Made by a program: the position numbers and the translations under genes | Notes under the pieces: generated by a model | Seen by the model: only the letters and a program-made list of their open reading frames with translations | Databases searched by the model: none | Told to the model about the DNA's origin: nothing | Assembly: GCA_034780895.1 (NCBI GenBank) | Contig: JAUZTB010000076.1 | Coordinates: forward strand, 43,657,922 to 43,721,921 | DNA length: 64,000 bases | Direction of reading: 5' to 3' | Source: Rhynchobatus australiae | Lineage: Eukaryota | Part shown: positions 11,506 through 60,325 of the stretch, one piece after another | Layout: every line of letters begins with the position of its first letter | How positions within the stretch are numbered: the stretch's first letter is position 1

Positions 11506-11509
<4 letters not shown>

Positions 11510-11542
<33 letters not shown>

Positions 11543-31959: not shown

Positions 31960-32700
31960 GGCCAGTTTTAGCAGTCCAGGTTACAGCAGTATTTCCGAGT
32001 TGCTGTTCCTCTACTTTGCGTTTGGCCTCCTCATGCAGTGCAGAAGGCCAAGGACAGACAAGAGTGGGAATGGGAACTGAGAATTGTAACAACATGCAAC
32101 TGAAAGCTCAAGATGGTCATTATGGACAGACCACAGGTGCACTGTGAAACATTTTGTCACCTACACATGATCACGCTTCATATTTCGCTTGGGTAGCCTG
32201 CAGCCTAAGGGTATGAACACTGAATTTTCCATTTTCAGGTAACCCACTCTCACCACCATTCAGGGTCTCTCTCCCTCTTTTACCCCTCTCCCCCTTGTTA
32301 CCCAGATTCATCACCCTTTTCCACCTGGTTCCATCAACCCATTGCCATTTCTCATCTCTCGGTTACCTTTCTTATCCCTTCTCCCTCCCCCACCTGGTTC
32401 CATCTGCATCATCCCTCCCTTACCTGGTTCCACCTATCAATACCCTTCCCCTTCCCAACCCCCAGCTCGCTCAATCTCTTAATTTATATTTTTCTTATGT
32501 TTCCACCAATCGCCTACCAGCCTGTCACACCCCTCCTCACTTGTATATACTGGCCATCTTACCTCTACACTCTCCTGATGTAGGGTCTCAACCTGAAACA
32601 TTGACCATCCCTTTGACTCCACAGATTCTGCTCGACCTGCTGAGTTGTTCCAGCAGTTTACTTTTTTCTCCAGCTTCCAGCATCTGCAATCTCTTTCAGC
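31960..32700 (+). mobile_element. Penelope-like element 3' end with an inverted upstream segment
   Basis: Plus-strand FIFRLGSLQPKGMNTEFSIFR* (GIY-YIG C-terminus) at about 32176-32241, pyrimidine-rich UTR and terminal module 32571-32695; 31990-32150 is adjacent GIY-YIG sequence on the minus strand. Confidence 0.78.
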
Positions 32701-32819
32701 TCCATGTCGCTCTGTCCTTGTTCTTGAAACTTTCTACTTTCCTTCATCAAAACAAATGCCAACTCCCCAGCTATGAGTTGAGTTTGCACAATTCCACCCC
32801 ACACTATCTCTGGTTTGCT

Positions 32820-32980
32820 AATGAGGGAGTGCAGTGAAGGTTCACCAGACTGATTCTTGAGAGACTGCTGTATGAGGAGAGATTATGTCATGGACAGGAA
32901 GATGGTACTTGATAGATAGATGATCAGCCATGATCAAACTGAATGAACTCATAGAGCCAAATAGCCAACTCCTGCATTCA
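32820..32980 (+). mobile_element. Deleted CR1 3' fragment
   Basis: gagggagtgcagtgaaggttcaccagactgatt; gatcagccatgatc. Confidence 0.65.
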
Positions 32981-33630
32981 ATGGTTCAATTAAATATCCT
33001 AAGCAATTCCTATTTCTATTCCCTTCTGCAGGAGGAAGGTGACTTTCTGATTTCTGTGGTCAACTATACATGTGAAATTACTAAGGAATGGTCAATAGTT
33101 TACAGGTTAATACAGGTGGTAGATTCATCATGAAAATTTCTATTCCAATATTCTAGAAATGCAAATAGTATTATATTTGATTGAAGTTAATCAAGGGCGT
33201 ATTCCCAGGACAGATCTCCCAGTTAATAGGACAGAACAAGGACAGATCTCCCAGAAAATGCTGCCAGCAGTGTGAGAGAAACATACACAGCTCCCTACCT
33301 GTGGTTTGTGGCAAAGTATTTCCTTTCTCCTGACTGTGCACTGTATTCCAATTCTTGGAACCACTCACACTGGGCCACAAAGACTTTCAGTTGTAGGGAA
33401 CACAGCTACCATAAGGCAAGGTAAAATAACATATGCAAGCTGCAGGCAAGTGCGGCTGTCACACAATCNNNNNNNNNNTTAGTGCTTAAGGGACAACCAC
33501 AGACCAGGGAATAGAAGCGTGTCTGCAGGCACTATGTCAAGACAACAGAAAGAACCCCTTCCAACATAACTCGTATCAGGCAACTTTAAAATTAGTCAGA
33601 AAATCTGTATGGATTCAGTAGCATAGCCAG

Positions 33631-33730
33631 ATTCTGACAAAAGGTCTTCGACCTGAAGCATTAACTCCGTTTCTATTTCCATCTACATTGCCTCACCTGC
33701 TGAGAGTTCGCAATTCTGCTTTTGTTTCAA
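33631..33730 (+). mobile_element. Penelope-type terminal module with hammerhead-like core
   Basis: ctgacaa-a-aggtc-ttc-gacct-gaag-ca-tt-aact followed by gcctcacctgctgag. Confidence 0.7.
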
Positions 33731-34036
33731 TGGTACAGCTAACTGAATCCTCAAAGTCAAAATAAAGCTCTGCACTCAAATGTACTCTGCTCTCTGTATT
33801 GTACAGCATCACAGTGTGAAATGAAACGATAGTACATATTTTAGCACTGATTTACACAAAAGGTATTTCAAACATTCCAAATGAGTGAACTAAATAAAAT
33901 GTGTAGCACTCTGACATTTACTAGGTATACTGGAATTAAGTGAGACACACTCCAAAGAGAACAATAGCTGGGGAAAAAATAAAAACAATTCTTCTTTTCC
34001 AGATAATGCTGAATTTATGCTGGTACTTCAATTATA

Positions 34037-34050
34037 CCACTAGGGGGCAT
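34037..34050 (+). promoter_or_regulatory. Candidate CTCF site
   Basis: CCACTAGGGGGCAT matches 13 of 14 positions of the core CCASYAGRKGGCRS, in otherwise AT-rich non-repeat intron. Confidence 0.5.
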
Positions 34051-34125
34051 TATCTACCTATCTTAAGGCAAACAGACTTATCCTTTTTCATTTAGATCAG
34101 TGCCAAAGTAGCAGCAGCATCTTAC

Positions 34126-34257
34126 CAATGGTCCTCCCATTCTTCAGCCAAGTTAATGTCGGTGGAGGAATGCCAGTAGCATCGCAGGCAAAAGTGACAG
34201 GATTGCTAATGACCTCATTGACTTTTTCCTCTGCCAGGCCTTCAATTCTGGGTGGGA
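34126..34257 (-). CDS. HMCN1: HMCN1 exon w15 (132 bp): (V)PPRIEGLAEEKVNEVISNPVTFACDATGIPPPTLTWLKNGRTI
   Basis: atgcag acceptor, gtaaga donor. Confidence 0.93.
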
Positions 34258-35279
34258 CTGCATGAGAAATAGAACAGTTGAATGATGTACAATTATTTCT
34301 TTATGTTTTTCCTGGCAAATACTGAGCATAACAAACCTTCCAATTTATGTGGCTGCACAGAAAAATGGCCAAGATTTGCAAGCCTGTTACTGTGCTCCTC
34401 TGCTTTTGAGTGTTCAAAAGAGATACTTGAGATTGAAATTCTTTTGCTGTAATACAGTTTGACATAAAACTGCATTGGAGAAAGGTCAACTATCTACTTA
34501 CGAAGGTGTTTAACTGCAGTGAAAACATACATTGTGACAAATGCACACACAAAGACACACATGCACACAAATGCGCATGCACACAAAGCTATGAGCTGGT
34601 TTAATTTTACCCTATTTATATTTGGAGGGGGTGAAATCAACTCCTGCAAGGGTTGGGAGCAGCTAATTTAGTACAGTGCTGGGATTTAATCTGGGATACT
34701 TCCTGAATTATATGGCTCAGTGCATAATGTTAGAAAGATAACTGGACACCTCAGGGATGGTTCTTCAAAAAGATAGCAACACCCGTTTTAATGCAAAGAG
34801 CAGCACATAATAGTATATACTTTTATGCTCTGATGACATACTTTGGCAGGAGTAAATGCATTTAATATTTTCAAATTGCTGAGAAAAGAATGCCAGTGAC
34901 AATGATGTCCTTCAAACGTACCAAATGAAAGTTCAGTCTCATGTGCAGGGGAATGAATTGCTCTGTCAGGAAACAATAATAACTTTGTTTCTGCAAATAG
35001 CTCCGAAATAAATAGAATAATTTTCCATGTCCCTGGTTCTGGCACCATTTGAAATGCCGCAAAAACAAAACTCCACAAGTTGGGTCTTGAATTTTTGCAA
35101 TTTATTTCATTATTTTAATAAAATATAGTAAACGATTAACACATTAGATTTCTTCTGCGTGCCTCATATACACAGAGATATCTCTCAGGTCATGGAGAAT
35201 GTGGATGTTAAACAAGGAGAGAGCACTCACATGTTGGCCTTGGCAATGGCAACACACATGTCCCTGAGCTGGAAGGTTG

Positions 35280-35940
35280 CTCATTCAAGACTACTGACCT
35301 CAGATTTTGTGATGTTGAGCTGGGAAGTTGAAGCAATCCTCCAGGAATTTGAGCTTATTATGCAGGATAAAAATTCACTGCAGTACTAAGGGAGTCTTGC
35401 ACTGTTGGAGGTACAGGTATTCCTAGATTTACAAATGTTTACTTTATGAAGTTTCACGACAATGACATTAACTCTCTGGGGGACGTGACTGTGATTTATA
35501 GATTTATTTTTCGCAATAATGAATAGTGTGATACTCTTCTCGGAGAAACAAACTACACAGAAAGACCCATAAGGCATTTTGCCCAGACATTTTGATTTAT
35601 GAAATTTTTCTTTATAAGAAGTTTTCCAGGAACACACTTGTGTAATTTGAGGAATGGCTGTGCTATCTTTTGCATGAGGTGAAATAGAGGCCAGATCTCC
35701 TGTTCCAATGGATGTAAAAATATGCAGTATTTTCGAAAGTGCAGATAGCTTCCCTGGTGGCCTGGGCCAAGCCAAATTCAAATAACATCACCTAAAGCGA
35801 TGAACAGATTATTGGACCACATCTCTCTTCAGCTTGTGCGACCTGGCCATGAGCATTTTAGTTTTCACTTTGCCCTACATAACAACTTCAATACTTTATC
35901 CTCTTTGGGATGACCAAGATCATGAAAGTCTTTAAACAAA
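35280..35940 (+). mobile_element. DeuSINE-like element split by a MITE; a second decayed copy follows at about 35955-36185
   Basis: Deu-domain gcagtactaagggagtcttgcactgttggagg continues as tgctatcttttgcatgagg after the insert. Confidence 0.65.
35414..35660. mobile_element. Tigger/pogo-like MITE
   Basis: Imperfect TIRs CAGGTATTCCTAGATTTACA and (reverse complement) CAGCCATTCCTCAAATTACA; left flank TA, right flank TG. Confidence 0.6.
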
Positions 35941-36594
35941 TCATTTCTTATCCTTCAGGCTGACACTCCAGGGCCGTGGAAATAAATCGTACATTATAAA
36001 ACTCCTTTTCATACTGAGAATGCTACATCATTGGAAGTACTGTTTTTGGAGAAAGACACTAAATTAAGCTTTAGCCTTTTGACTTCACCTTGTGGGATCT
36101 TGTTGCTAAGAGACCAACTTCAATGTTTGTTTGAACAACACTTCAAAGTGCTTGATTGCTTGTGAGGTACTCTGGCCCGTCCAGTAAGCTCCTTTTTAGT
36201 GGAAGCAGACTTTTGAAGCCGGGGGAAGATCATACAGTTGGTTTATTTAGGGAAGGATAAGATTTTTGATGAAGGAGTGGAAATCCAAACATAACAAGGG
36301 TATGTAGGACATGAAGAGGGTGTGGGCATAGCCTGCAGCTGTCTTGATAGTTTGTAGCTTAAGGGAGGAAATAGGAGGTGCCCTCTCAGAGATAAGGAAA
36401 CCTACAGCTGTACAAATATACCACGAATTAAACAATTCTTATTTGCATCCAAGTTGTTATAATTAACATACAAGATGTCAAAAAAACATCTTGCATCCCA
36501 CATTTCCTGCATTTAGTTCTGTTCTCTTTGCTCTTCCAGTAATTTCAGAGTTCATGTTTCATGTCCGAGTTGCACCTTCCCAACATATCAAAAG

Positions 36595-37387
36595 CAAATA
36601 AAAATAGCAGATGCTGGAAATCTGACATAAAAGCAGAACAACAGAAAATAATCAGGTCAGGCAGCATCTTTGGAGAGAGAAATGGAGTTACGGTTAACGT
36701 AGCGTTTTTACAGTGCTAGCGACCTGGGTTCAATTCCCACCGCTGTCTGTAAGGAATTTGTACATTCTCCCCGTGTCTGCATGGGTTTCCTCCGGGTGCT
36801 CCGGTTTCCTCACACATTCCAAAGACAATACGGGTTAGGAGCTGTGGGCATGCTATGTTGGTGCCGGAAGAGTGGCGAAACTTGCGAGCTGCCCCCAGCA
36901 CATTCTCAGTAACGCAAANNNNNNNNNNNNNNNNNNNNNNNNNNNNNNNNNNNNNNNNNNNNNNNNNNNNNNNNNNNNNNNNNNNNNNNNNNNNNNNNNN
37001 NNNNNNNNNNNNNNNNNNNNNNNNNNNNNNNNNNNNNNNNNNNNNNNNNNNNNNNNNNNNNNNNNNNNNNNNNNNNNNNNNNNNNNNNNNNNNNNNNNNN
37101 NNNNNNNNNNNNNNNNNNNNNNNNNNNNNNNNNNNNNNNNNNNNNNNNNNNNNNNNNNNNNNNNNNNNNNNNNNNNNNNNNNNNNNNNNNNNNNNNNNNN
37201 NNNNNNNNNNNNNNNNNNNNNNNNNNNNNNNNNNNNNNNNNNNNNNNNNNNNNNNNNNCAACATGTTTCATTCCGAACTTTTCCTAGTTCTGATCAAAGG
37301 TCATCAACCTGAAAAGCTGACTCTTTCTCCCTCTGCAAATGTTGCCTGACCTGTTGAGCATTCCCAGCATTTTCTGCTTTCATTTCA
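36595..37387. mobile_element. Inverted pair of Penelope-type terminal modules, interrupted by a V-SINE and an N-gap
   Basis: Left arm gcagatgctggaaatctg...caggtcaggcagcatctttggagagagaaa is complementary to right arm tttctccctctgcaaatgttgcctgacctg...cagcattttctgcttt. Confidence 0.72.
36691..36918 (+). mobile_element. Young V-SINE (3' end in gap)
   Basis: gggttcaattccc B-box; near-consensus V-domain ttctccccgtgtctgcatgggtttcctccgggtgctccggtttcctc; many CpGs retained. Confidence 0.85.
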
Positions 37388-37733
37388 TATTAGCCAAGAA
37401 ATAATGTTGGATGTTCAATGTAAAACCGAGCCTCTGGCAGAAACACAAGAGAATCATATCAGATCAGCTGCCAAATGTATGTAGCCCCTCATATTTAATT
37501 CTACTGCTGTCAATGGAAATAAACGCTCTATACAAGGCATGACCAATCCAAAACTGCCAGAGCTGAATTTCTGGTCTTGAAACGTTGTGCTAACACCGAT
37601 TGACAATGGACTCCAATGATTGCATCTGGGAGACGGACATTGCCAGCTTTTCATTCTTTCATCTAAAAACAAATTTGATTAGTTGTACATTCCATATCCA
37701 CACACAAACGATACTTCTTCAGAACAAACTTAC

Positions 37734-37815
37734 CATGTATATTGAGATGGAAATTCTTATCCATTTGCCCAGCAATGTTTGTGGCCTTACAGACATACTG
37801 GCCTGTGTCTGAAAC
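37734..37815 (-). CDS. HMCN1: HMCN1 exon w14 (82 bp): VSDTGQYVCKATNIAGQMDKNFHLNIH
   Basis: acttag acceptor, gtaagt donor, phase 0-1. Confidence 0.93.
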
Positions 37816-39702
37816 CTAAGTGAATAAAGAAAGGCAAAAATTTTCAAAAGAAAAATTGAAATTAATTTAGTTTTATGAGAATTAATAATCTACATAAATT
37901 ATGATCAAAAAGGGTCATGTGGGTGTTCAAATGGGTAACCAATTTAATTCTACACAATACAAATTTAATTANNNNNNNNNNAAGGCATCCCTTCAAGTTG
38001 GCTCTCCAACTGCACTGTTATTCCAGTAATATAAATTTAATGTTTTGAAGATTTATCTCCATATATCTAGTAAATCTAAAAGAACAAATTGAACTATACC
38101 TTTTTTTTAAATGGGTGCAACTGAGAATGTGTTGAAATGTTTCAAAGTGCAAATTACTTGGAGTTAAAGGATCTAATTAGTGAAAAGAAAATTTAGAATT
38201 GATGTCAGAAACTTCTTCTGCACACAGAAGTTGATCTACAGATAAAGCTCTAGATTTGACGTGCCGAATCCCTGCCTCGAGGACAGCTGGTTTACTGATT
38301 GTGCCTGCTTTCATTTGAATGTCTTGTAAAATTCACAAATCGAATTGACCCTTTTTCAATAATTGCTTTCAACGCATTTCAAATTTTCTCCCAGCCTGGT
38401 TTCCTTGACTTACAAAAATACACAACAGTTTTCCACAATTGCCAAGTGCAAATTTCAAAAACAAAATCCCAATCATCAACAGATCAGATGCCGAAAATTC
38501 CTTCCAATGAAACCCAACAGAATGTCTGATCCCTTTCGTCATTGATGAAATGCTAATGAAATTGCAGGAAAACATGTTTAAATATGCAACTTTTGCAAAT
38601 CTAGCTTCAGTAGTGGCTTTTTTAAACTTTTTAATTACAGAGAGAACTTTACTCTGAGAAAGAAGGAATTTACACAATGGTGGTTTATTTTAGAAGCTGA
38701 TCCTTAAGTGAAACCAAAATAACACTTTAAAATAGTTGTATCTATATCACTCTGCAATTATTGATCATGAGTAGGAAGAGGTTAAGTGGGCCTGGAACCT
38801 CTAATTGAAGAGATGATAGAGAATAACTACCAATGGATGCAGAACAATTTAACAGTATATCCTATTTTCCATTAAATTTCCTTTTCAAGGACTGACTGCA
38901 AATTAACAATGAAAAAGAAACTATTCATTAATTAAAGGTATTATTCGACAACCTCAGCCTATTTTCTGATTGGAATCATCTGTGCAATCGAGAATTGAAA
39001 AAAAGAATATATATTTTTTAAGCAAAGCAATCTTCCAGTCACTTCAATGGTAAAGGTAGTATCTAGGACATAGGCAGACATTCCACACTGATCCAGCAGG
39101 AGCATTAATGTATGAGACAGAAATTTGGTCAAGTGCTGGATATGTATTTTTGGAAGCAGTTGGGTATTGTGTTTCATCTTTTAAATGTGGCTATATTTCT
39201 ACCTTGTGTGTTTTGAATGACACATTAAACAGAGGCTAGCAAACAGGATAGTTCCCTTTGCATCCTGGCCAACATTTACCCCTCAATCAACAACTATTGA
39301 ATTAAATTAGCTGATTGTTTGCCCCACTGCTGCTGCTGATGGCTTCCTGTAGATTAATTAATTAATTAGTTCAGGTCCCATCATGGATGAATAACATGGG
39401 TTTATCTTAGGAATGGTGCAAATGGGTGCTTGCTGGACTTGGTGGGCTGAAGGGCCTGTGTCAGTGTTATATGACTTGATGATTTTCTGTCTCTATTGGT
39501 TTTGTGCAGCCAAGGGTTTGCACTCAGATTCTACTTGAAAATTTTTATATTAATCCAGTAGTCTTCCATCAAAAATGAGACATTATCCACCCAAAATCAT
39601 GGGTCTAAATGATGGTGGGATGTGATGTTGTCACAAAAAGAGAGTTCATACTGTGAGACCTAGAAGTGCATTCTGCTCGTGTCTGACTTTGAAAAACCTT
39701 AC

Positions 39703-39905
39703 CTCAGCATTTGTGATCTCCAGAGTCTGGCCATTGGCCAGAGTTCGAATATTGCTGGACTCAACGACTGGGCGGCCGTTCTTAAACCAGGTGATGATGG
39801 GTGGTGGTACTGCATTTGATTCACACTCCAGAATGGCTGTGTTCCCAGTGCGGACACTGACTGAGTGAGGGGAATCCCCTGCACCATCCTTAATAGTTGG
39901 TGGAA
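39703..39905 (-). CDS. HMCN1: HMCN1 exon w13 (203 bp): (V)PPTIKDGAGDSPHSVSVRTGNTAILECESNAVPPPIITWFKNGRPVVESSNIRTLANGQTLEITNAE
   Basis: ttttag acceptor, gtaagg donor, phase 1-0. Confidence 0.94.
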
Positions 39906-40210
39906 CTAAAAGAAAAGTGAAAGTTTGAAGACAGTTGAATGTGACATTAACTGCAATGCACCTCAGAAGGAAGTGGATGGTGATAATTTCCAGACAGGCT
40001 TTCAATCATATCACTGCCTAAAACTGATTCACACATGCTGCTTGCAGGCTACTTCATCGGACCTCCAAGAGCAATGTGGAAATAGCAACGTCCTGTCTTT
40101 TTCTACCGAGAACCATACTATGAGATACCAGGAGTGGTAGATGCTGTAAGGCTTTATTTCCAATAGCCTGCATGTTGAAAGGGAATACAACAACAATTTC
40201 CATTCACATT

Positions 40211-40272
40211 GCAAAAAACAAACTGCTGGAGGAACTGATGCAGGGTCTTGACCTGAAACATCGACAATTCCC
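40211..40272 (+). mobile_element. Internally deleted Penelope-type terminal module with hammerhead-like core
   Basis: aaacaaactgctggaggaa fused to ctgatgc-a-gggtc-tt-gacct-gaaa-ca-tc-gac. Confidence 0.7.
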
Positions 40273-40329
40273 CCCTCCCCCTATCCCATAATCTATTATT
40301 TATATCGATACATATCAAATAAGAGACTA

Positions 40330-40640
40330 TGCAACTGAAACCATGCCTGGCATGCAGTGTGTAGTTTGGGATTTCAAAACTGAAATACTTTGCAAAGGTT
40401 TACTAGGTTGTTTCCTAGGTTCAAACATTATCCTCTGAAGACAGATTGAGTAGGTTGGGCCTTCACCCTTTGCACACTTCAAGAATGAGAAGAGATCTCA
40501 TTTAAAAATATGAGGTTCTGAAAGACTGATACAATAGACTGGAGAATCTAAAACCTGGACCAGTGGATTAGCCATGTATTATAGAGGTGGCAAGAAATTT
40601 CTTTGAAGAGTTTTGTTTCCCAGTTGCTGCATTCTCACTA
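40330..40640 (+). mobile_element. Decayed CR1 fragment
   Basis: gcaaaggtttactaggttg...agaatgagaagagatctcatt. Confidence 0.6.
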
Positions 40641-43600
40641 AACATGACAATTCAGAATCTTGAAAATATATGAATATGCTGATAGATGAGGTGGCATATG
40701 TTAATTTCNNNNNNNNNNNNNNNNNNNNNAGGTAGACCAGATGGAACTAGTGGGCTATTTAAAACACTTTACAATCTGCAGGAATATTTATACAGTTCTC
40801 AGTTCAGAAATGTGTGTTAAATAAAGATTGTCCATGGTGCAACATTTTAAACCAAACCATATTCCATGTTCACAGAGAAAGAATAAGCGTGAAAACAAAG
40901 AGTTAGTCCATATACAGACAATGTCTCAAAATGCATTTCTCTAAATGTCCTGTCAGTGTGCAGATGATAGAATTACAACCGCTTACCTTAACAACACCTC
41001 TGATAATTAATTTGGAATGTGTATTTCCAAATTAATGGTGTTTATTTAAATTGGGGCAGGCCTCCTGACAAGAGTTGGAATTGAGCCAGTCGCATGCAGA
41101 TTGTCAACAGTTTGTAAAAAGAGCAAATCTAACTACACTTCATTATTTTGGCTCCAGAGCCAGATGGATTATATTCTATTACTGGCTGATATTAAAACCA
41201 TAAGGTGTTATTTCTGCTTTCCAAACCAGACTTGTGGAATAGTTGTCATTATAATGCTTGGGTGGGCCATAAAGTAAAATGAAATTCTATTTAAAAATGT
41301 TGATATTCCAGTGACTCAGTGACAAATTGTCTTTGTTAAACTCAGCAGCAAAATACACATCTAAAGTCACCAAAGTTCCATTCTCGATAAGAAGCCACAA
41401 TGAAGCAACTAAGTTAATGTATTATTTATGTAGATACTTTTACAATTAAGAGAATATATAAGTACTNNNNNNNNNNNNNNNNNNNNNNNNNNNNNNNNNN
41501 NNNNNNNNNNNNNNNNNNNNNNNNNNNNNNNNNNNNNNNNNNNNNNNNNNNNNNNNNNNNNNNNNNNNNNNNNNNNNNNNNNNNNNNNNNNNNNNNNNNN
41601 NNNNNNNNNNNNNNNNNNNNNNNNNNNNNNNNNNNNNNNNNNNNNNNNNNNNNNNNNNNNNTAATTCAAAATCAATTAACCAAACTTAATATGAAAAATA
41701 GGTTCAACAAAGTTTAGTTGAGTTTGAGTCCACTGGTGCATAATACCATGGTTGTAATCAGTGACAGAGGAAATTAGGCAAATCAAAACTGATGGTTAGA
41801 TTGGATTGTTGAGTTTAAAGGTTGTTTAGTGAGATAAAAGAAAGATTAAAGGAAACAGGTTTTAAACAGGTCCATTATAATAGATAAACTTCCTGCTGAA
41901 TTTTGTAGTTTCAAGTCTAGTCGACAAATTCAAATGTCTTGATTACTATTATCCATCTGCATAGCAAAAGCAGAAAAAGTTTGCTTACAACTTTTGGCAT
42001 ATTATGAATGGGAACATTGTTTCTCAGAAATAACACAAATTTTACAGTGATATTTTGCATTAGCAATTGCAAGGCAACAAAATATTAGCACGTCAGATAA
42101 AAGTAATTTACTTACAAAAAACTTAAAGCTACTAATAATGCATAAAGTGAAACTTTTGCCAGTTAGACAAACAATGAGCTATTTTGGATTGGCTGTCCTT
42201 TATACATGGCTTGTAATAAAGACCGATGGCAACACAGCTTTTACTTTTAAAGGAATTTAACTCAAGATATTAATATCCACGTTCGCTCTTTATGACAATG
42301 CTTTTCAAAGTGGGACTGCCATCAGCCACTCTAATAGTAACGTAATCCCCAACTAATTTTTCAAAACTGGAGTTCTTTACATGTCCACGATGGGAACACT
42401 GCAACAGGAGTTTGTCCTCTGAACCTGTTCCACCCATCACTTTTATCTTTACTGAACTGCACCTCAGTTCTATTTACCAGCCTGTGCTACCCAGGGATGT
42501 CAGAAATCTTACCAAACCAACATCTATTGGAGTCAATATTGTTCAATTAACTTGGCATCTGGTCTTCTGGGAAAGGGAGTTTCAGATTCCATTCTAAAAT
42601 GGTTGAGTTGTAAAAGGTCCAAGCTGTAATGTTCCCTTGATCAGAACTCTCCCGAAGAGGCAAGAGTTGAAAAGTTGTTACATGCAAAAGAATGGAATGC
42701 AGCTTCATCTTCAATACTTATCCTTTTATCAGATTTCCAGAACTTGTTTGCAGCCAGTGTTCAGCAATCCAGGAATCACAGTGTTCAGGAATAATCACAT
42801 GAAACTAATTGAGATTCACAGGCTCAATGCTCTAACTGGGATGGTTGGCTGAAAATCAGCTGGGCTTGTAGCACTACACCTCCACCCATTTCCACCTTTA
42901 TAATAATTATCTGCTATTGTGTATCCTGGACGCCAGAAACATACTCCACCCATCCATTAGACATAACTGCAGGTACAACCTTCTGCAGGCAAGAGTAATG
43001 TCTTGGGGCAAAACTCATAGCTGGTTTCAGGAAGAACTTGGGGGAATTCCTTCTGACTCTCAAAAACAATTGAGCAAGTCCCACAAACAGTGAATTACAC
43101 AGACATCACAACCCTAGTGTCACAGACACTGGATATCAATTTATTTTGTTTGCCAAAGATGCATCTGTCATCCCATCATTCTGTGATTCAGTTTAGCTAA
43201 TCCTTTGAGGATATTAAATGTGTCAGTAAGGTCATCTTAGTGGAAACACCACTTCTTTTCAATGTAAACGTTTGTGCCAGAACAAATTTCCTTTCCTCAT
43301 AGCTTGGGTGCCCAATTCCATTTATAAATTTATCAAAGCATCTGAAAGATACACAACATTTGAAGTATTTTGCATACAATTTGAAACTACACAACACAAG
43401 CATGTTTGGGGTTCCCTTTGNNNNNNNNNNNNNNNNNNNNNNNNNNNNNNNNNNNNNNNNNNNNNNNNNNNNNNNNNNNNNNNNNNNNNNNNNNNNNNNN
43501 NNNNNNNNNNNNNNNNNNNNTTTGTAATTGGTACCTGTACCTTTGTTTCCTTCTTTCTGTTTCTTCCTTTTGCCTTAAACTTTATATCTTCATTTGTTCT

Positions 43601-43779
43601 GAGCTTTAGCTAATTCCGCTCTTGAAGTGAAAATATCTGCAATTTGAACCTCTTTACCTCTGCCTTCCTGATGGCCATTCAAGGTTTTTAACACTTTTAT
43701 TGTCTGTAATTCTTAACATAGCATTAAGCTTAATAATAGTTACTGATACTCTTGTACAATTTTTCATGTTCCCAAGAGC

Positions 43780-48559: not shown

Positions 48560-48979
48560 CTGGGTGGAAAAGCACAATGAAGAGAGCAATTGATCAGCAA
48601 TATCCTTTCGAACTCTTTGTTTCCAAGACAGAAGTTCTTGACATTGTAAAGCTTGAGCAGGGCTAATCAAATTTTGGTAAAGACATTGGAATTTCTAATA
48701 ACCAGTAAAATAGCACCCTCTCATTTTCTGGCAGTGTGTTTGGATTATTCATTACAGTGTACATTCTGTCAGGCACATAACATGTATTGATGATTGTGAC
48801 CACAAAAGAGATGGGGGGGGGGGGTTAGAGATGCACCCACTATTTTTAAAATACATTGGCCTTGAAATTGGACTATATAGCTCCACATTTTTAGGTATAT
48901 GCCAGTTGGAGTTAATTAAAAAAATAATTGCAAAGGCAAATTGTGGACCAATCGACAGTTTCACAAGGTCCACAGTTTT

Positions 48980-50010: not shown

Positions 50011-50221
50011 AGTACTCCTTCCAAGTCCCCCATGGGTTCGACCACGAAACACACCAAAGAGCCCATCAACAGACAGCATGGGCCTCTCATGCAGAAGCAG
50101 GCCTTCCCCAATGCATATGTGGCCAGCTTCATTGTAACCTAAAAGGGATCTTCCAGAGAAGGAGCCATTTCGTGGAGTTCTGCGCTGGGGACCTGCCTCA
50201 GGTGGGTCCCCTAGAAAATAG

Positions 50222-50915
50222 ACAACTGCTCTGCCCAGGACTGCAAGAAACTGCAGAGAGTTGTGGGCACAGCCCAGGGCATCACAGACACCAGCCTCGC
50301 CTCCTTGGACTCTGTCTTTACCTCTCGCTGTCTTGGTGAAGCAGCCAGCATAATCAAAGACCCCATCCACCCGGGACATGCTCTCTTCTGCTCTTCCATC
50401 GGGTAGAAGATACAGGAGCCTGAGGGCATGAACCACCAGACTTAAGGACAGCTTCTATCCCACTGCAATAAGACTATTGAACACTGGGATGGACTATACC
50501 TTATACAATGGGATGGACTATAACCTCACAATCTACCTTGTTGTGACTTTGCCCCCTATTGCACTGCACTTTCTCTGTAGCTGTGACATTTTACTCTGTA
50601 CTGTTATTGTTTTTACCTGTACTACCTCAATGCACTNNNNNNNNNNNNNNNNNNNNNNNNNNNNNNNNNNNNNNNNNNNNNNNNNNNNNNNNNNNNNNNN
50701 NNNNNNNNNNNNNNNNNNNNNNNNNNNNNNNNNNNNTTATCCTGATCTCTTTGTAATACATGTACAAACATTGATGCTATATATTAATCTGTATTGATTT
50801 GAAAACTAATAAATAATATTGAAAAAGAAAGAATTGGCCTGTACAATCGGTACACAAGACAAGTTGTTCACTGTACCGCAGTACAAGTGACAATAATAAA
50901 CCAATACCAATACCA
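50222..50915 (+). mobile_element. Rex1/Babar-clade LINE 3' end
   Basis: CSAQDCKKLQRVVGTAQGI...IIKDPIHPGHALF...PSGRRYRSL...RLKDSFYPTAIRLLN; tail gtgacaataataaaccaataccaatacc. Confidence 0.85.
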
Positions 50916-51488
50916 CTGCAGTAGTTCTCCATGACGGACCTATACCTGGAATCCACAAGAGGAGCATGACCCTGGGCTCCAGCACTCTGATAACATCCCG
51001 GCCTCTCAAATGAATCTTGGCTTGAATCCTCCTCCTCTGTCACCCAACCTTTAGGCCTTGCCATTCTCCCCATCTTCAATCTGCTGTCCTACCCTTGCTC
51101 AGCACCCAGTGGCCAACTGCACCCTCCCCAATTCTACACGCCAGATGACCCTAACTTTTCCCAATCCCCTGAATGGAACTGAATTCACCCTCCACCTCCA
51201 ACCCTCACCCTCCCCATCCATTTCAAAAGCTTCCATCCTGCCACCCCAGCAGTTTGGGCCCATGGTTTACCTGGTTTCCTTTATGTTCTCTGCCATCAGG
51301 GAACAAGCAAAGGAAAGATCCTGGTGATTGCAAGACATATTCCAGTGCAAGGCACTTTAGGCCTCATGCACTGCAGAGTCTTTACAGCGATAGACCATAA
51401 AACAAAGGGTTAAAGTGTCATTAGAAATGTGAATCGAGCATGATTGTTCTATGAAATTGGTTTACTTAGCTGCATCTATGATACTCAC

Positions 51489-51602
51489 TCATAACCCTCA
51501 GATCATACTGAATAGAATCTTCGCCTGCTTCATTCATTGCCACACACGTGTATCTCCCAGCATCCTCAACTTGTGCTCTGGGTATCTGTAGCACGCGTCC
51601 TC
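51489..51602 (-). CDS. HMCN1: HMCN1 exon w8 (114 bp): (G)GRVLQIPRAQVEDAGRYTCVAMNEAGEDSIQYDLRVM
   Basis: cattag acceptor, gtgagt donor; translated manually. Confidence 0.93.
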
Positions 51603-52367
51603 CTAATGGGTAACAAGCACAAATTGATGTTATTGAACACAGAGGCTTTAAGGATATGCTTCTTTTGTCTAATATGAGAACGCCAGTAGGAATTCAATTT
51701 CAGTTATAGGCCACAATATTGGCTCATGTTTTATAAAGACCATAAGATCACCTGTGATGTTGTTCTCAGGTATTCTGCATTCTAAAAGCATGCTCTTCGT
51801 AATTTAGCTGCTAAACCAACTCCCCTTATTTCTCTCTCTATTCACTCTCCTTTGTGGTATTAGGGGAGGAAGTTCAAAAAGGTATTAATATAAACCAGAA
51901 ACTAATTACATTTGAAAGTTTCTCAAGGTTGGCAGGTGTGTAGCTATTCTTTGGGGAAATACAAGATTATCTCATTGCAAGAAGAGATAACTGGGGAAGC
52001 ACATCACTCTTTTTTTGCTTTTCTTTGACCGTGCAGTTGTAATGAGTTGACATTTTATAGAAAGGATGAGAACTTTGCTGCAAGGTATAATCAAACCAAT
52101 ATTCTCAACTTTAGCCAAGCAAGATCTTCCATTTCTGCAGCAACTTTCATGGTCTCCAGATGTCCACCATTGCCTGCAGAACAGGTGATATTTCCTGAGC
52201 ATAAAATGCCAAAATGACAATAATTGTTTTGCTTCACTGAAGTCAATATTAATGGATATTAACAGTAGAACTAAAATTATATTAAGTGAAGACTGCAAGG
52301 TATCAACACAAAATCACACTAAGGGCCTTGGCTTTCAGCTGTTGTGCAATGCCAGCAGGTTTGGAAA

Positions 52368-52482
52368 ACAAATGAAACTGCAGATGCTGGAATCTGAGAT
52401 AAAAGCAAAAGAACTCAGCTAGTCAAGCAGCATCTGTGGAAGGAGCGAAGGAGAGACCAGTTAACGTTTAGGTCTGGGACCC
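52368..52482 (-). mobile_element. Penelope-type terminal module, truncated within the hammerhead
   Basis: ctgcagatgctggaatctg...gcagcatctgtgga...agttaacgtttaggtctgggaccc. Confidence 0.7.
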
Positions 52483-54001
52483 CGCCCAGCATGGTTTTGC
52501 TGCGACATTCATAATGCTGCTCCCACAAAGAAGTGTCCCTCAACAATTCCATGGTGACAGGCTTTACCTCCATTTTAGGCCAACTCCCTGGCCTTTATGG
52601 AGGACTCCACCAGAAAGGGAAATCAAGGTCGGCTGCAGCAGAACCTGGTGGCCTTGTACAGTAAGCCATTGGCAGAGGCCTCTTTTGATCATGTCATTTT
52701 CTGTACTTGCAATATTTTAATACCCTTCTGCCATCCAAGCAATACTGCACGTCTGGCCATTGAGTCCACTGTTGCTGTGGTACAAATAATGTTGATTATA
52801 CAGACTGATATTTCTATAATTTCAGACTATTACAATATATCCATTGGAAGAGGTGGATGATACTTTGTACTCCTGCACAGGAGCTCAAACATGGACCAAG
52901 AGGAAGCCCTGAACATTGTCCTGGTCACACCTGTGGGCTAACACAATACTACTGGACAAGGTGCAAATGGTGGCTTGTGTTCAGGATCAAGTCACATACA
53001 GAGGCTCCCAGCACCTACAGTAAAGGCAGGAGAACCTCAGTATAAAACTGTGTAGCATGGAACAGTGTCTGCAAGGAGTTGGTGGGATTAGGAGGATTAA
53101 AATAGCTTCATTGGGAAACTGTGGTAAAAAATGGAAATAACTTCAGTGACAATACAAAATAGGACATGTGTATGGTGAAGAAGAGACACAAATTGAAATA
53201 AGAAGACTCGGGAGGGGGAGGATAGGACTGCAGGAATATCAATGGCAAAAGAAAAGAATCTGATTAAATTGAGAAAGATTGGGACAATAAGAAATGGGAG
53301 AAGCAGTGAGAATGTAAGAATGTCAGTAAGTTCTGGACCATCCTAAGTAAACAAAAAGGGAAGGAATTGATGTCTAATTCTTTTAAAAAGTCAATCCGAG
53401 AAAAAAACTTTATCAATGGCCTCTAGTTGTCCCTCAGTGCTTCACAACAACACTTGAGAAGTGTAGATGTTGAGAGGGACATGGGTGTTCTTGTAAAATA
53501 ATCATTCATATCAGTTAGTTTGTTTAACAGTTAAAGTGGTCCAGTTTTTTATATTCTTGTTTTGTATACTAATACATTGAAACAGTTATTTATGTTAAGT
53601 TTCTCCCTTGTATAGAGTATTCTTTTCTGTTTAGAAATTTTATGCATATAGAAACTTCTATCCGAAAATGAGTCAGAACTTGATGAAGGCAGGGAACTGT
53701 ATAACATTAGCAAACATTATCAGTGGAGAATAAACTACCCCAGGAAACTCCCTAGTGTACCAAGAGATGCGTTGAAACCTCTGTCAGTGATTGATGTTAA
53801 TAGTGTCATTGAAATGTGCATTTTTAACATTTATTTAATTCAGATTATAGAAGGATCTAATATGTCTACTGTCTCTTTCTATTCTCACTGGTAAATCTGT
53901 TNNNNNNNNNNNNNNNNNNNNNNNNNNNNNNNNNNNNNNNNNNNNNNNNNNNNNNNNNNNNNNNNNNNNNNNNNNNNNNNNNNNNNNNNNNNNNNNNNNN
54001 N

Positions 54002-54055
54002 GAGAGAGAGAGAGAGAGAGAGAGAGAGGTAGAGAGAGAGAGAGAGAGGAAGAGA
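54002..54055. repeat. (GA)n microsatellite
   Basis: Directly visible, adjacent to a gap. Confidence 0.92.
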
Positions 54056-54084
54056 AATTTAAGCAGGCTGCACATATACTTCAT

Positions 54085-54445
54085 AGACTAGAAGGATGGA
54101 GGATGATCTCATCGAAGCATATAAAATTCTTACAGGGATTGACAGGGTCAATGCAAAGATAATGTTTCCCCTGGATGGAGTGTCTAGAACTGTAAATAAG
54201 GGGTCAGTTAATCCAAATGAGATGCAAATAAATTTCTTTATCCAGAGGGTAATGAATATTCAGAACTCTTGAGCCCAGGGAGCTGTGTAAGCTGTCACTG
54301 AGTTTGTCAAAACAGAGTTTGATAGATTTTATTTGACAGTAGGGAAATCAAAGTATATGGGGTTAGTGCAGGAAAGTAATGCTAATTAAAAGATCAGCAT
54401 TATCTTATTGAATGGGAGCAGGTACAAGGAGCTAGTACCTTCTCT
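54085..54445 (+). mobile_element. CR1 LINE 3' fragment
   Basis: gatctcatcgaagcatataaaattctt (DLIEAYKIL); gatcagcattatcttattgaatgg tail. Confidence 0.82.
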
Positions 54446-55934
54446 CGTCACTATTGTAATACAAATAAGTATAGGCCTCATAAACAGAAATTAAACAAAT
54501 GATCAAATGATGTGATAGTGATTTCAGTTATAAGATATATATCTGCTCGAAAACTGAGTGAATAGACCTACGAAATCTATAAGGGGAAATTTTTAGTTGA
54601 TGCGAAAGGTCAGTTCCTCTTAAAGAACAGAAGAATGTCCAAGTGTCTAGGATGATTAAAAAAAGGAGAGGACCATTAAAAGAGGAAAGTATCAGAAAAT
54701 TGCTAAACAGAAATGTCACTGATACGGAACGTCTGAAATGCTGAAATGCACAGTCAGTCAGATGAGACGATGATCTGGCCAAAAGGCAAACCGCATGAAG
54801 GTCTAGGCCACAACAGAGATGTTTGTTCACTAAAATCTGCTTTCCATCTCGTATCTGGAGGGGACCACCCTGTGTGCAGGAAATACAGCAAACAAAATTG
54901 GAGGAAATGCTTGTAAATTGCAACCTCATACAAGAGAGCTTGTCACTCCAGATAATGAAGTGAGGGGGGATGACTGAATGTTAACACAACTGCTGTGGTT
55001 TCATGGGAAGGTGCAGCAGATGCTTTGGTAGATACAGGAGAACAGAGTGGGAAAAAGTCAGGGACAGTCTCAGCAGAAAATACAGAGGAGGAGAAGTGTG
55101 CTTGGAAGNNNNNNNNNNNNNNNNNNNNNNNACGGCAATTCACATGGGTTATCATAGGCCAATTAACAAGTGCTAGAATCTGTTTAGTAAAAATCACATG
55201 AATTCAAGATTTACCCTTGTGGTGGTAGAATTTGCTTCCTGTAGGCACTATTTCACCTCAGAATGGGCCTGCTTTGCCAGAATAATTCACATGTCAATTT
55301 TGCTAAATGAGAATTCTCCTGCTGTGACTAAGAATCGTCACAATAATAAAAAAAAATCATAAAATTCATAAATGTTTATCTCAACTCTATCATTCTGACT
55401 GAGAAAGTCTGAATGAGCACCATATGTATTCTGGTATCTTCAGAAACCTGTGCAGACCAGGGTAAGTTTTGCATCCTGAGGGATGGTTCATCTGTACCTT
55501 TTAATCAGGAGTTAGGCCGTCAGCTGAAGGCTGGACAGATTGAACACGCAGCATATTGTATTTTGATAACAATGGGGGAATGTTTGCTGCGACTTGAGTC
55601 TGGAGTCCCTTCATGTCAACTTCAACTTGATCCCTCCACCAATCATTTCTTTCCCTCCTTTTTCAAGAAACATTTTTTGGAAGGTTTGCTCCCTTCTTTT
55701 CCAAATTCACCAACCCTACCGTCAATTAACTTCTCCGCATCTTTGAATGCAGCCACAGAGTAAAGCAAAAGTTATATTCCCAGATATCAGCAAAACAATT
55801 GCAACATGGGTGCTTTGTCATTAAATAATTCATGGTACAAGTATTAACCTGCAGAGTGGTTTAATTGCAGCTATCATAGACTCCACATAAGGAGGGCATT
55901 TTCCACTCCCTTAGTCTGTGACAATGATACATAC

Positions 55935-56141
55935 CTGGCAGTATCAGTACATTGCCATTAGATGTCAATGGTTTTCCATCTTTGTACCAAGTGAGAGATG
56001 GTGGTGGGACAGCATTGGTCTCACAGTACAAAGAGATGGGGTTGTTAATGACTACATCCTTGAATACAACTGTCCTGCTCCCTTCCAGTGCATTCCCATT
56101 CATATCATGGCTATTTTCTGGCTTCACAAAACTTGGTGGAA
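55935..56141 (-). CDS. HMCN1: HMCN1 exon w7 (207 bp): (V)PPSFVKPENSHDMNGNALEGSRTVVFKDVVINNPISLYCETNAVPPPSLTWYKDGKPLTSNGNVLILP(G)
   Basis: atttag acceptor, gtatgt donor. Confidence 0.94.
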
Positions 56142-56369
56142 CTAAATCAAAGATTAAAAAAATGGTTATATTAAAAAAGTATTTCTTTACAAATCTTTAT
56201 GTAAAGAAAAGTTACTTCTATATGATAAAAGGATAAAAACAATTACAGAACAGATATCTGAAAGAAGTAAATGATAAATTTTAGCATAGATGAGAATGAC
56301 AGAAATTTACTTAAAAAGATCATTGCAGCACAAAGCACAATTGGGAATAAGCAAATAATGAAATCTAAC

Positions 56370-56502
56370 CTTGAACATTTACATCATAGTCTTTCTCGTC
56401 CTCTCCAGCAATATTGACAGCCACACAAGTATACCGTCCTGTGTCTGAAATCTGGGTCTTCTTGATTTGAATAATCCGGCCATTTGCTGTGATGGTGATG
56501 TG
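56370..56502 (-). CDS. HMCN1: HMCN1 exon w6 (acceptor probably in N-gap): HITITANGRIIQIKKTQISDTGRYTCVAVNIAGEDEKDYDVNVQ
   Basis: gttag donor; DTGRYTC motif; this frame is absent from the ORF track; 5' end in gap 56503-56628. Confidence 0.9.
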
Positions 56503-58040
56503 NNNNNNNNNNNNNNNNNNNNNNNNNNNNNNNNNNNNNNNNNNNNNNNNNNNNNNNNNNNNNNNNNNNNNNNNNNNNNNNNNNNNNNNNNNNNNNNNNN
56601 NNNNNNNNNNNNNNNNNNNNNNNNNNNNTCTAGCTGAAATCTGAATACATAAATGGAATGATTGGATGGAAATCGATGCAACTGACTGTGTCTTAATAAA
56701 AGAATTTCATTTTTCCTCTCTCCTTTTAAGGCACCCACTCCATCAAATTTGCTCAAATGGCAGTCTTAGAATATATGACTGATATGTGCATTAGAGCCAT
56801 GCCTGAATCTCTTCTAACTTGGCTGTAACATAAGTAAATACACAGTACTCTACCATATTGCTCAACCCCAACTGTCTTTGAGAAGGTGCAGGTGAACTGC
56901 AGTCCTTGCTCTAAACTTACTCAGAGCGATCTTGCAATAGTGGCAAAGCAATAGTGATGTATTTCCAATTCAGGATCGTATGTAATCTGAAGGAAACCAG
57001 TGCTTCAAAAAGGCAGCTCCCTCCATCTTCTCAAGGGCAATTAGGAAAGGGGAATAGAAGTAGGCCTTGCAGATAAACCTCACATATTTGTATCTATTGA
57101 TCACAGATGAGGAGAGATTGTGGCAAGGCTTTTATGAACTTTACCTCATAAATAGTCTAGGATCGGGATTGCTATTTGAGCAAGAGCTGGGTGGTGATGT
57201 TCTCCTGTGTCAGCTGTTCTTGTCCTACTTGGTGGTTGAGGTTGTACAGAAAGCAGTGAGTTGCTGAGGAACAGTTTGTAGACAGGATGCACTGAAGGCA
57301 CAGAGAGCCGGTGGTAGGGGGAGTGGATGTGTAAGGGGTAAATGGGAATTCTGTTCGATGTCTTCATGCACTACTTTAATAAATAATCTACATAACTGTT
57401 AGTTGATTCATTGAGAACAACAGAACATTATGTGTTGGTAACTTCACATATAATTTTCAAATGATCACTTATTAATATTTAACTGGGGATGACTTTGTCT
57501 TCAACTTCAAAATGACTCTGATGTTTATATCACTATTCACCCCCTCACGTCTATGCTGGCTCTTTGCTGGATGAATCGAAAATTATTCTGGTTGCTTCAC
57601 TCAATTCACAAGCCCGTGTCTTCCTCCACTTCCAATATCCATCAAATTCCCCTTCACTTATTTATATTTTTATCATGTGCTTGGTTGGGAATCCATCTGC
57701 AAACTTTACCCCCAGAACTAGGATTCCAGCAGAGGTGGGAGGATGGGCAGAAGCCTAGTATGATATCATCGATGAACTTCAGTGTTCATTTATTCTATTC
57801 ATTCNNNNNNNNNNGGACTCAGATCCATTCAAAGTTATTTAAGAAAGGGAGGAGAATACATTTATTTGGTCTGTCAGATTTCATGAAACTATAAATCTGC
57901 TACTGTTCATTGTGACACTTGAATGGTTAACATGATTGTGCTATGGACAATGCAAACTGCAGTGGAAACATATTTTCTCATAACACAAATACATCATTTT
58001 GAATGCTCATTCAATATTATATATGAAAGGCTAAACACAC

Positions 58041-58182
58041 CTGTCCATCTTTGTACCAGTGAAGTGTGGCTGCTGGAATTGCATAAGATTCACACTCGAG
58101 AGTCAGGGTGGTGTTTACTTTTATTTTAACTTCTTTGGGTGACAGACCAAAATCTGGAATATCATCTTTGTTGATAGTAGGA
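58041..58182 (-). CDS. HMCN1: HMCN1 exon w5 (acceptor in N-gap): [47 protein letters not shown]
   Basis: gtgtgt donor, phase 0; first few bases lost in gap 58183-58344. Confidence 0.92.
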
Positions 58183-58351
58183 NNNNNNNNNNNNNNNNNN
58201 NNNNNNNNNNNNNNNNNNNNNNNNNNNNNNNNNNNNNNNNNNNNNNNNNNNNNNNNNNNNNNNNNNNNNNNNNNNNNNNNNNNNNNNNNNNNNNNNNNNN
58301 NNNNNNNNNNNNNNNNNNNNNNNNNNNNNNNNNNNNNNNNNNNNCACTTAC

Positions 58352-58465
58352 TGTAGACCTTTACTTCATAATTTTTTAGTGTTTCTCCTGCTTCATTAGT
58401 AGCAATACAGGTATATCTTCCAGCATCCTTTTCCTGAGCGTTGAGAATCTGAAGAGTTCGCCCCC
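58352..58465 (-). CDS. HMCN1: HMCN1 exon w4 (114 bp): (G)[37 protein letters not shown]
   Basis: tgtcag acceptor, gtaagt donor. Confidence 0.94.
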
Positions 58466-60001
58466 CTGACATTAGGAAGAGAAAGTGTAGGATTACCTGA
58501 ATATATTGTTATCAATGAAAGTCATGACATGAGTTCTGCAGAGACTCAGTATGAAGCAACCACAACATCACAGGACAGGAACTCCTATCCTCCAGATTTG
58601 AAATCTAAGAGAATGCTGACTTACAATTAGATATGATAATGGATTTATTATTTTTTTCTTTGATGTATAACACATGGAATTTACTGATCTCATTCCATAC
58701 CTCCTATTACCAAATCAATTATATTAATTAATATATTTTAACTAGGAATAATAACTTTTTGTCTCAATATTACCATAATTAGATATATTACAACATATAA
58801 CTTTTATTCATTAATATCCACACAATTAAGTGAATAAGATGCAAAAAAAGCTGCTTAGATGTACTTCAGAATTGTTAATGCTTTCACTCAGGTGCTCCAG
58901 CTCGGAGCCCGCACTTACCAACTCCACTGATCACCTGAATCCAATCAATAAAGAGACATCTGGCATACTCATTACCATTTAATTCATTTCAAGTGNNNNN
59001 NNNAGACATATCCTGAAAGGGATGCCAAGGGCATGGTTTAGCTGTATGATCAAGTGAAATATTCAGACTGGTTCAGGGCTCAGACCTCACAGATGATGCA
59101 CACACTGCAGAATGGCAGGTTGCCCTCAAGAAGCCATCCACTAGCACTGGGACAGATTGAATTTGATCTGGCCCGCTCCTCAAACCCATCGCCAACACCT
59201 TCACTCTATTCGCATAACAGCACTAATGTTCTACAGCCCCACAAGTTAAACTGTTTCCATGTCTCACTGCCATGGATGTCCTGGGAAGCAGAGTTTGTAG
59301 AGCACAAGGCCTTTTTTTGAAACTGTTTCCAAATGCCTTTGATAATCAGAGACAAATAAAACTAGTTGGAAGAGTTTTATTTTTTTTTTAATTATAGAAG
59401 TTATTTAAAAACATTAGAATTGAATAAACTAAAACTCAATCCAGGCTGACACCCATTCAAATGAGTGGGACCATGCTGCATACGTCAGTCACCCCCAGAC
59501 TCAGTGTTGGGTTTAGCAATAGAGTGGGAAGTCACATGTACTGGCATTGGACCTACAGCGAGTTCCTGACTTCCACATCGCAATGTGCTGATTTGCACAC
59601 TACAGTCAGTTGGCAGTTCCCTATGGATTTACCAGCTGGCTGTCATCATGATCTGGAATATTCGTCATTCACTCCAATCTTTAAGAGGCAGAGAAGCCCA
59701 TGGAACCAGTTGAGTGTCAGTCCAGCTCAAGCACTCAGGCCAGAAAGGAAGCTTAAACCAATATTTTGAGGGCCACCACCTGAAGCAAAGTGACATTGAT
59801 TAAAGAAGCTTTAATTGAGTATTCCATATGAGAGTCAGAAAATATTAAATAGCTGCTTATAGTTACCTACTGAAAAAACTGCAAGTGGTATTTAGCTCTT
59901 TGAGGGGGGAGGGGTGCGGTTATTCCGACCCATCTAAGTTTCATGCTTTCATAATGCCTGAGATATAATTAAAAACTTGGTTCTAATGTTCTTTTATTTA
60001 C

Positions 60002-60175
60002 CTGGAAGAATCTGGACATTTTTGTTGGATTCGAAAGGGGCTCCATCTTTAAGCCAGGTGATAATTGCAGGTGGGTACGACTGTGCCTCGCACACAAGGG
60101 AGGTGGGACTATTCAGAATAACGGTGACATCCTCTGGAGTGCCTTGACTGTCAACACCAGAAATTTTTGGAGACA
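60002..60175 (-). CDS. HMCN1: HMCN1 exon w3 (174 bp): (V)SPKISGVDSQGTPEDVTVILNSPTSLVCEAQSYPPAIITWLKDGAPFESNKNVQILP(G)
   Basis: atttag acceptor, gtaaa donor; matches ORF 59994..60176. Confidence 0.94.
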
Positions 60176-60222
60176 CTAAATGGTGAACAAGGAAAGTGAA
60201 AACAAGTTATAAAACTGATTCT

Positions 60223-60325
60223 AGTTCTGATGAAGGGACCCAGGACCAAAACATTGACTGTTTCTCTCTCCACAGATGCTGTCAGACCTGCTGAATTTTT
60301 TCAGCATTTTCTGGTTTTCATTCAA
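60223..60325 (+). mobile_element. Penelope-type terminal module with hammerhead-like core
   Basis: agtt-ctgatga-a-gggacccaggacc-aaaa-ca-tt-gact then tttctctctccacagatgctgtcagacctgctg. Confidence 0.75.

Follow-up and report, generated by a model that had tools for sequence, protein, structure and literature searches.

The 64,000-nucleotide stretch of Rhynchobatus australiae DNA analysed here (the window; assembly GCA_034780895.1, contig JAUZTB010000076.1, positions 43,657,922 to 43,721,921 of the forward strand) lies in a hemicentin-1-type gene and carries dispersed short modules that an earlier note, made from the letters alone, had described as minimal hammerhead-ribozyme motifs borne by Penelope-type termini. 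Our analysis makes it highly probable that these modules are the decayed 3' ends of an abundant Penelope-like element (PLE) family encoding a reverse transcriptase (RT) and a GIY-YIG endonuclease, likely of the Neptune clade. Each would carry a minimal type I hammerhead in fossil form; in the master element this was likely a ribozyme that depended on dimers, whereas all copies in the window are predicted to be inactive. The kind of element is already known; the family is a further PLE member, and its window copies are ordinary.

RESULTS

Decayed modules and endonuclease remnants in the window

A module profile built from 45 genome copies recovered 11 modules in the window at E<0.01, comprising all ten that had been listed before, each in its place, and an additional one at 36585-36690 on the minus strand. 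The same profile gave no match on a 670 kb reversed genome sample, and a window-seeded profile gave a single match on the reversed window (E=0.48). Modules measure ~100-140 nt, with a hammerhead-like part of ~35 nt followed by a conserved tail, and the consensus previously drawn by eye agrees with the genome-wide majority sequence. The observation that no copy is fully intact was likewise borne out: a strict minimal-hammerhead descriptor (CUGANGA, stem II of at least 3 pairs, GAAA, NUH and stem I of at least 3 pairs) found no match on either strand of the window, every copy has at least one loss among G8, A9, G12, GAAA, the triplet and stem I, and the CUGANGA and GAAA boxes with an NUH triplet are complete in 0/11 copies. 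When the window was searched with Rfam covariance models, no hammerhead was returned at E<=10. These copies are likely inert passengers, each predicted from its own letters to be inactive. Weak matches at 30688-30733 (minus strand, E 0.54) and 31843-31866 (plus strand, E 0.05) may be further module scraps.

Remnants of the GIY-YIG endonuclease lie upstream of 3/11 modules, namely those at 9760 on the minus strand and at 32575 and 49213 on the plus strand (protein E 2e-10, 8e-8 and 2e-6), in keeping with the claim that several modules lie downstream of such remnants. With a single GIY-YIG copy as the query, tblastn detected no remnant in the window at E 0.01; profiles did detect them. The features of the window are as follows.

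1..64000, minus strand: host gene with immunoglobulin (Ig) I-set repeat exons, hemicentin-1-type (Ig motif counts, one I-set exon)
9657..9771, minus strand: PLE 3' module (decayed hammerhead and tail) with an altered G8 and with both stem II and the cleavage triplet disrupted, sense to the host gene (profile search)
9922..10376, minus strand: linker and GIY-YIG endonuclease remnant, 5' of the 9760 module (nhmmer; tblastn E 2e-10)
14553..14653, minus strand: PLE 3' module, CUGAUGA intact, GAAA and triplet broken, sense to the host gene (profile search)
31996..32175, minus strand: inverted GIY-YIG piece (5' inversion), whose junction with the plus-strand piece falls near profile codon 179/180 (DNA and protein profile)
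32176..32564, plus strand: end of the GIY-YIG open reading frame (ORF) and 3' untranslated region (UTR), in one insertion with 31996..32175 (DNA and protein profile)
32565..32699, plus strand: PLE 3' module of the C-G class, core from 32575, position 9 = T, G16.2 and stem I 5' strand lost, long (tailed) end (profile search)
33632..33737, plus strand: PLE 3' module of the U-A class, G8 and GAAA broken (profile search)
36585..36690, minus strand: PLE 3' module absent from the earlier list, tail and stem I 3' strand only, diverging from the 37290 copy (profile search)
37279..37392, plus strand: U-A class PLE 3' module with an altered G8 and a broken triplet (profile search)
40213..40280, plus strand: very short insertion in which an inverted tail piece (40213-40236, weak match) abuts a C9-lineage hammerhead (core from 40235) lacking the stem I 5' strand (profile search)
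48943..49178, plus strand: GIY-YIG C-terminal remnant, immediately 5' of the 49213 module (DNA profile E 8e-6; protein E 2e-6)
49206..49342, plus strand: PLE 3' module of the U-A/A10.1 class, CUGAUGA intact, GAAA lost, long (tailed) end (profile search)
49902..50004, plus strand: PLE 3' module with an internal deletion across stem II and GAAA (profile search)
52361..52482, minus strand: PLE 3' module without CUGANGA, sense to the host gene, long end (profile search)
54825..55014, minus strand: orphan GIY-YIG fragment with no module close downstream (DNA profile E 4e-7; protein E 0.001)
60220..60329, plus strand: best-kept PLE 3' module of the window, core from 60227, G12 and G16.2 lost, stem II broken (profile search)

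Linkage of the module to a Penelope-like element

Across the genome, a search with the Pfam GIY-YIG model (PF01541) placed a locus on a large contig (L034) above the cut-off, and 29 loci similar to it, picked without regard to the hammerhead, formed a GIY-YIG-anchored set. In 21/29 of these loci a module match lies on the same strand 200-1200 nt past the end of the ORF, and RT remnants were found 5' of the endonuclease in at least four loci (L044, L065, L039 and L060; E to 3e-20). The linkage was also examined in an even sample, made up of 80 stretches of 10 kb each that were taken at regular spacing from nine large contigs (669,615 non-N bases in all), where a sense ORF piece lies within 1 kb upstream of 19/168 modules as against downstream of 2, and 16/24 ORF pieces are followed by a sense module. 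This linkage to GIY-YIG and RT remnants supports the assignment of the module as the minimal type I hammerhead of a PLE 3' end, or pseudo-long terminal repeat (pLTR). The encoded protein has a C-x4-C-x2-C linker motif 50 aa upstream of the YIG motif, and the sections of Craig 2021 (PMC8557442) used here describe a CX2-5CxxC linker ahead of a C-terminal GIY-YIG in the Neptune clade; by this motif the RT plus GIY-YIG family likely belongs to that clade.

Two small contigs of 44% GC, L179 (G000:C21803) and L180 (G000:C48128), hold intact PLEs of another family with long RT and GIY-YIG frames, an upstream ORF and their own well-formed minimal hammerheads (L179:3224 and L180:865). The L179 element is covered identically, at low depth, by one DNA run, while another DNA run and two RNA runs leave it uncovered, so that it may be foreign DNA or present in few copies.

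Hammerhead classes and covariation

Pooled genome copies split into sequence classes, seven of them main. In the older U-A classes, stem I reads AGUU/AACU, the triplet is GUU and the 10.1:11.1 pair is G-U or A-U; the younger C-G classes have CAGUC/GACUG, GUC and G10.1-C11.1, and the youngest class has N7 = A and the triplet GUU. Across subfamilies, N7 may be U, C or A, while H17 is either U or C. The majority sequence contains CUGANGA, GAAA and NUH in 4/7 main classes (UA/G10.1, UA/A10.1, CG canonical and CG A7), and those without canonical boxes are U4A and two C9 groups. Stem III is replaced by a palindromic CG at 15.2/16.2, which shows CpG decay to TG/CA, and 97% of the 71 aligned copies have an A before 10.1. 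In the parts of PMC4209133 consulted, a metazoan PLE hammerhead consensus is given that the canonical classes fit.

A genome-wide consensus and the covariation of stems I and II, both proposed as checks in the earlier note, favour the motif, with a strength that for one pair depends on the sample. The pair 10.1:11.1 is G-C, G-U or A-U according to class (Fisher p 0.015, tail-anchored sample), and the A-U class has 90 matches in the genome. The pair 2.1:1.1 is C-G or U-A; with both positions left free there were 6479 matches, and the first 100 of these, counted by hand, comprised 78 C-G, 11 C-A, 4 U-A and 1 U-G (p 0.002, with 6 other rows of the 100 left out).

Genome-wide abundance and RNA reads

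The even sample contained 168 module matches (reversed control, 0), a density of ~250 per Mb against ~180 per Mb in the window, which is therefore ordinary for module density. Extrapolation to the 2.23 Gb assembly gives ~5e5 module matches, a figure in which both halves of an inverted pair are counted. The strict descriptor was passed by 3 matches in this sample (~2%; control 0). Exact-pattern searches of the genome returned 104, 6050, 6479, 244 and 90 matches with a reversed-pattern control of 0 each. Matches free of CpG decay number at least 104 + 244 elsewhere in the genome, and many of these have a canonical core. Together with the subfamily-level covariation, these undecayed matches support the earlier proposal of an ancestral self-cleaving ribozyme: the ancestral module was likely a ribozyme, and in the master element a dimer-dependent one, as judged from sequence.

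Three raw RNA-seq runs from a related or same-labelled organism held 6853, 9627 and 19432 reads, on both strands, with at least 85% likeness to a young copy. No heap of read ends was seen at the cut site and depth was smooth across it, a weak test given fragmented libraries and mostly decayed copies. At L202:4365-4440, first mates of run X21 on the youngest-class 3' UTR were ~2.5-3x commoner on the minus strand, which implies more sense transcript if the library is stranded.

Weighing the ribozyme and element assignments

Several results weigh against the assignment of the modules to a Neptune-like PLE with an ancestral ribozyme. In the tail-anchored sample, 2.1:1.1 reached only p 0.076, not significant alone, and this borderline covariation is blurred by CpG decay; moreover, some two or three events at master level underlie the covariation, a pattern that any markers of subfamilies would show. 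Within copies, core positions (0.67-0.98) are conserved no more strongly than the best-kept tail block (0.7-0.97), an outcome to be expected of dead copies. Monomer folding of five well-kept genome copies gave unremarkable z-scores of -1.8 to 0.4. The clade assignment comes from one motif and not from a tree, no full-length member of the module family was found among the loci examined, and no partial tandem pLTR-ORF-pLTR copy was seen among them, no dedicated search having been made. Finally, three candidate tandems outside the window yielded no clean intact pair. Folding energy was also tried as a motif signal and rejected, as it does not set the motif apart; in the four folded well-kept copies with U7 the core is paired into a rod as a monomer, and in the A7 copy it is open.

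A rival reading is that the hammerhead likeness is coincidental and that another function, for instance in binding RT or as a splice acceptor, maintains the sequence of the repeat end. The two abundant lineages with changed "invariant" core letters and the RNA reads that cross the cut site without a heap of ends would both suit such a coincidence. We nevertheless regard it as very unlikely, because the canonical classes meet every element of the published consensus, the youngest class retains the core while N7 changes, and the two unrelated intact PLEs in the assembly (L179 and L180) share the design.

Origin of the short copies

The ends of the copies provide further insight into how the family spread. 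In the even sample, an inverted module lies just upstream of 58/168 modules and downstream of only 2. Among 18 youngest-class copies that are intact or nearly so, together with their partners, the 3' ends are bimodal: counted from where stem I begins they fall at ~+100 and ~+134, or ~67 and ~102 nt beyond the cut site, ~34 nt apart. An independent DNA run has contig loose ends at both sites. Among diverging pairs (n=80, 67 classifiable), the long end is on one side only in 48 against 33 expected (p 2e-4), with thresholds chosen after the histogram was viewed and overlapping loci that may double-count pairs. In the window itself the endonuclease gene switches strand at 32175/32176, at about codon 179/180, which amounts to a 5' inversion. 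Because the copies retain both sides of the cut site, they likely derive from RNA that was uncut at the hammerhead. An inverted copy and a one-sided 30-40 bp tail are described for PLEs in the sections of Craig 2021 (PMC8557442) concerned, and the available text of PMC11167929 reports two internal RT start sites on unprocessed RNA for anole Poseidon in vitro. We propose that the element's own RT would have started within the uncleaved transcript at one of two sites and would usually have stopped within 150-500 nt, often with an inversion, thereby leaving short copies genome-wide, including in the HMCN1 introns, and that the inserted copies would then have decayed, most visibly at CpG sites.

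The inverted partners and the two 3' ends, both marks of PLE insertion, lead us to read the short copies as truncated PLE insertions, and the "solo" copies are best read as extreme 5' truncations and not as the independent units that the earlier note had envisaged. An alternative is a non-autonomous unit, SINE-like (short interspersed element) or retrozyme-like, that uses the PLE end and spreads alone, possibly via circular RNA. It would account for the 149/168 modules (~89%) without a GIY-YIG piece within 1 kb upstream and for the 14/168 with a same-strand module within 600 nt, and it finds a precedent in Li 2026, which, in the portion available, reports pLTR-derived retrozymes including one chondrichthyan. 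We consider it improbable, since the 5' ends are ragged and the inverted partners and one-sided tail are the same as in full PLE insertions. Tandem units each with a complete hammerhead, as in non-LTR retrozymes, are absent from the window, and none of three candidates elsewhere is a clean intact tandem: of the two seemingly intact ones, both flanking 100-N gaps, L178 is an identical duplicate across the gap and L201 is not established as a tandem. The one gap-free tandem seen, a partial one in L214 near 3696-3770, consists of two A7-class hammerheads ~71 nt apart with broken triplets, both damaged at 16.1/16.2.

Lineages with non-consensus cores

In canonical hammerheads A9 forms a sheared pair with G12, and it is at this position and at position 4 that the C-G class departs from the consensus. 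Of 6050 C-G class matches, the first 100, which come from a single contig, were counted by hand: 39 cores were canonical, 27 had A at position 4, 28 had C at position 9, 1 had both and 5 had other letters. Transversions this frequent that almost never occur together indicate two master lineages, U4A and C9. The C9 lineage has lost the pairs 2.4:1.4 and 2.5:1.5 (each paired in 5/30) and dominates the GIY-YIG-anchored set, whose majority sequence has an open frame of 199 codons that spans the Cys motif and YIG and ends at its stop. A second, independent C9 origin in the U-A class was hinted at by 9 pooled copies and dropped when a hand count gave C in 5/90 against G in 11/90.

As far as the consulted parts of the sources go, changes in the CUGA turn of a type III hammerhead lead to low activity (PMC9901934), and a U4C hammerhead variant still supports viroid infectivity (PMC3088659). 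Five core strings of the U4A and C9 types gave 0 matches in the searchable supplement of PMC4209133, and such cores were not found in the literature searched; the variant catalogue of Lunse 2017 or the supplements of Li 2026 may list them. Both lineages likely lost or weakened cleavage and yet spread; alternatively, the invariant A before 10.1 may take over as A9 in C9 cores. We tentatively suggest, at somewhat less than an even chance, that masters with a changed "invariant" letter made thousands of copies, the C9 one with an open GIY-YIG frame, and that PLEs can thus spread in vivo without a working hammerhead; should these RNAs cleave, they would represent new tolerated cores with the extra A as A9. 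If true, the family would constitute a genome-scale natural experiment on PLE spread without a functional hammerhead.

Host gene and other elements of the window

The window has 17 Ig motifs on the minus strand and 0 on the plus strand, and one of its exons encodes an I-set domain. In the 40 kb beyond the window start, the same strand carries 1 more Ig exon, 5 TSP1 exons and 7 calcium-binding EGF exons. We take this combination of Ig, TSP1 and calcium-binding EGF to be the layout of HMCN1 (hemicentin-1), assuming both the name and the TSP1 criterion. All modules lie in introns, 7/11 antisense and 4/11 sense to the host gene. The earlier location of the modules in HMCN1 introns stands, and given the ordinary density and the 7/11 antisense copies this location is incidental.

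At the 5' edge of stem I, a pyrimidine tract with CAG at its end runs into the 5' strand of the stem, resembling the intron end in D. virilis Penelope, and the module tail has two more putative acceptor-like stretches (stem I edge and tail, e.g., L202:4460-4475; window 49251-49342). Such stretches, recognized by eye as putative splice acceptors, and the four modules sense to the HMCN1-type gene could be taken to mean that the host retained some copies for cutting or processing HMCN1 pre-mRNA, as in the conserved intronic hammerheads of amniotes. This we hold to be extremely unlikely: cores are broken or missing in all four sense copies, there is neither a stem III nor a partner copy, and the module density of the window is below that of the genome sample.

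Other retroelement remnants common to several loci occupy 50200-50950, 49516-49864 and 19467-19649. The segment 50225-50918, common to three loci, has no Pfam match of note; it is presumably a Rex/Babar-type long interspersed element (LINE) end and not a PLE, and we assume that the remnants as a group resemble Rex/Babar-type LINE ends and CR1/L2-type 3' ends. At 25787-25912 and 46338-46521, 100-N gaps are flanked by perfect repeat pairs, one inverted and one direct, which are likely assembly artefacts.

DISCUSSION

The family offers a test set for the in vivo role of the PLE hammerhead, with sister lineages carrying canonical, U4A and C9 cores and hundreds of undecayed natural copies in one genome. 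Comparison with known systems is limited here to the portions of each source that we consulted. With the published metazoan PLE hammerheads (PMC4209133) the family shares the type I architecture, CUGANGA with one extra nucleotide, G10.1-C11.1 in the younger classes, the palindromic CG at 15.2/16.2 without stem III, a stem I of 3-5 bp and a pyrimidine-rich 5' flank, as well as mostly solo copies and several subfamilies per genome. It differs in scale, since the published total is far below the ~5e5 module matches extrapolated here, and the part of that alignment examined has no chondrichthyan row. Non-LTR retrozymes (Li 2026, 10.64898/2026.07.22.740005) likewise have a type I hammerhead from a PLE pLTR and mostly ORF-less copies, but theirs are tandem arrays with intact motifs, whereas here the copies are dispersed monomers or inverted pairs.

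With the endonuclease-containing (EN+) PLEs of the Neptune clade (PMC8557442), the family has in common the order of RT and C-terminal GIY-YIG, the CX2-5CxxC linker, the inverted 5'-truncated partner and a 30-40 bp tail at one end only; it differs in that no full-length copy was recovered, and Nematis likewise has the linker motif. The Poseidon element PAc of Anolis (PMC11167929) belongs to another clade and has an ORF that starts inside its own module, yet it shares two 3' ends one tail length apart and downstream of the cut site, inserts that hold both sides of that site, and RNA-seq without ends there. The present family thereby adds genomic support, from a second PLE clade, for priming at two internal sites of uncleaved RNA.

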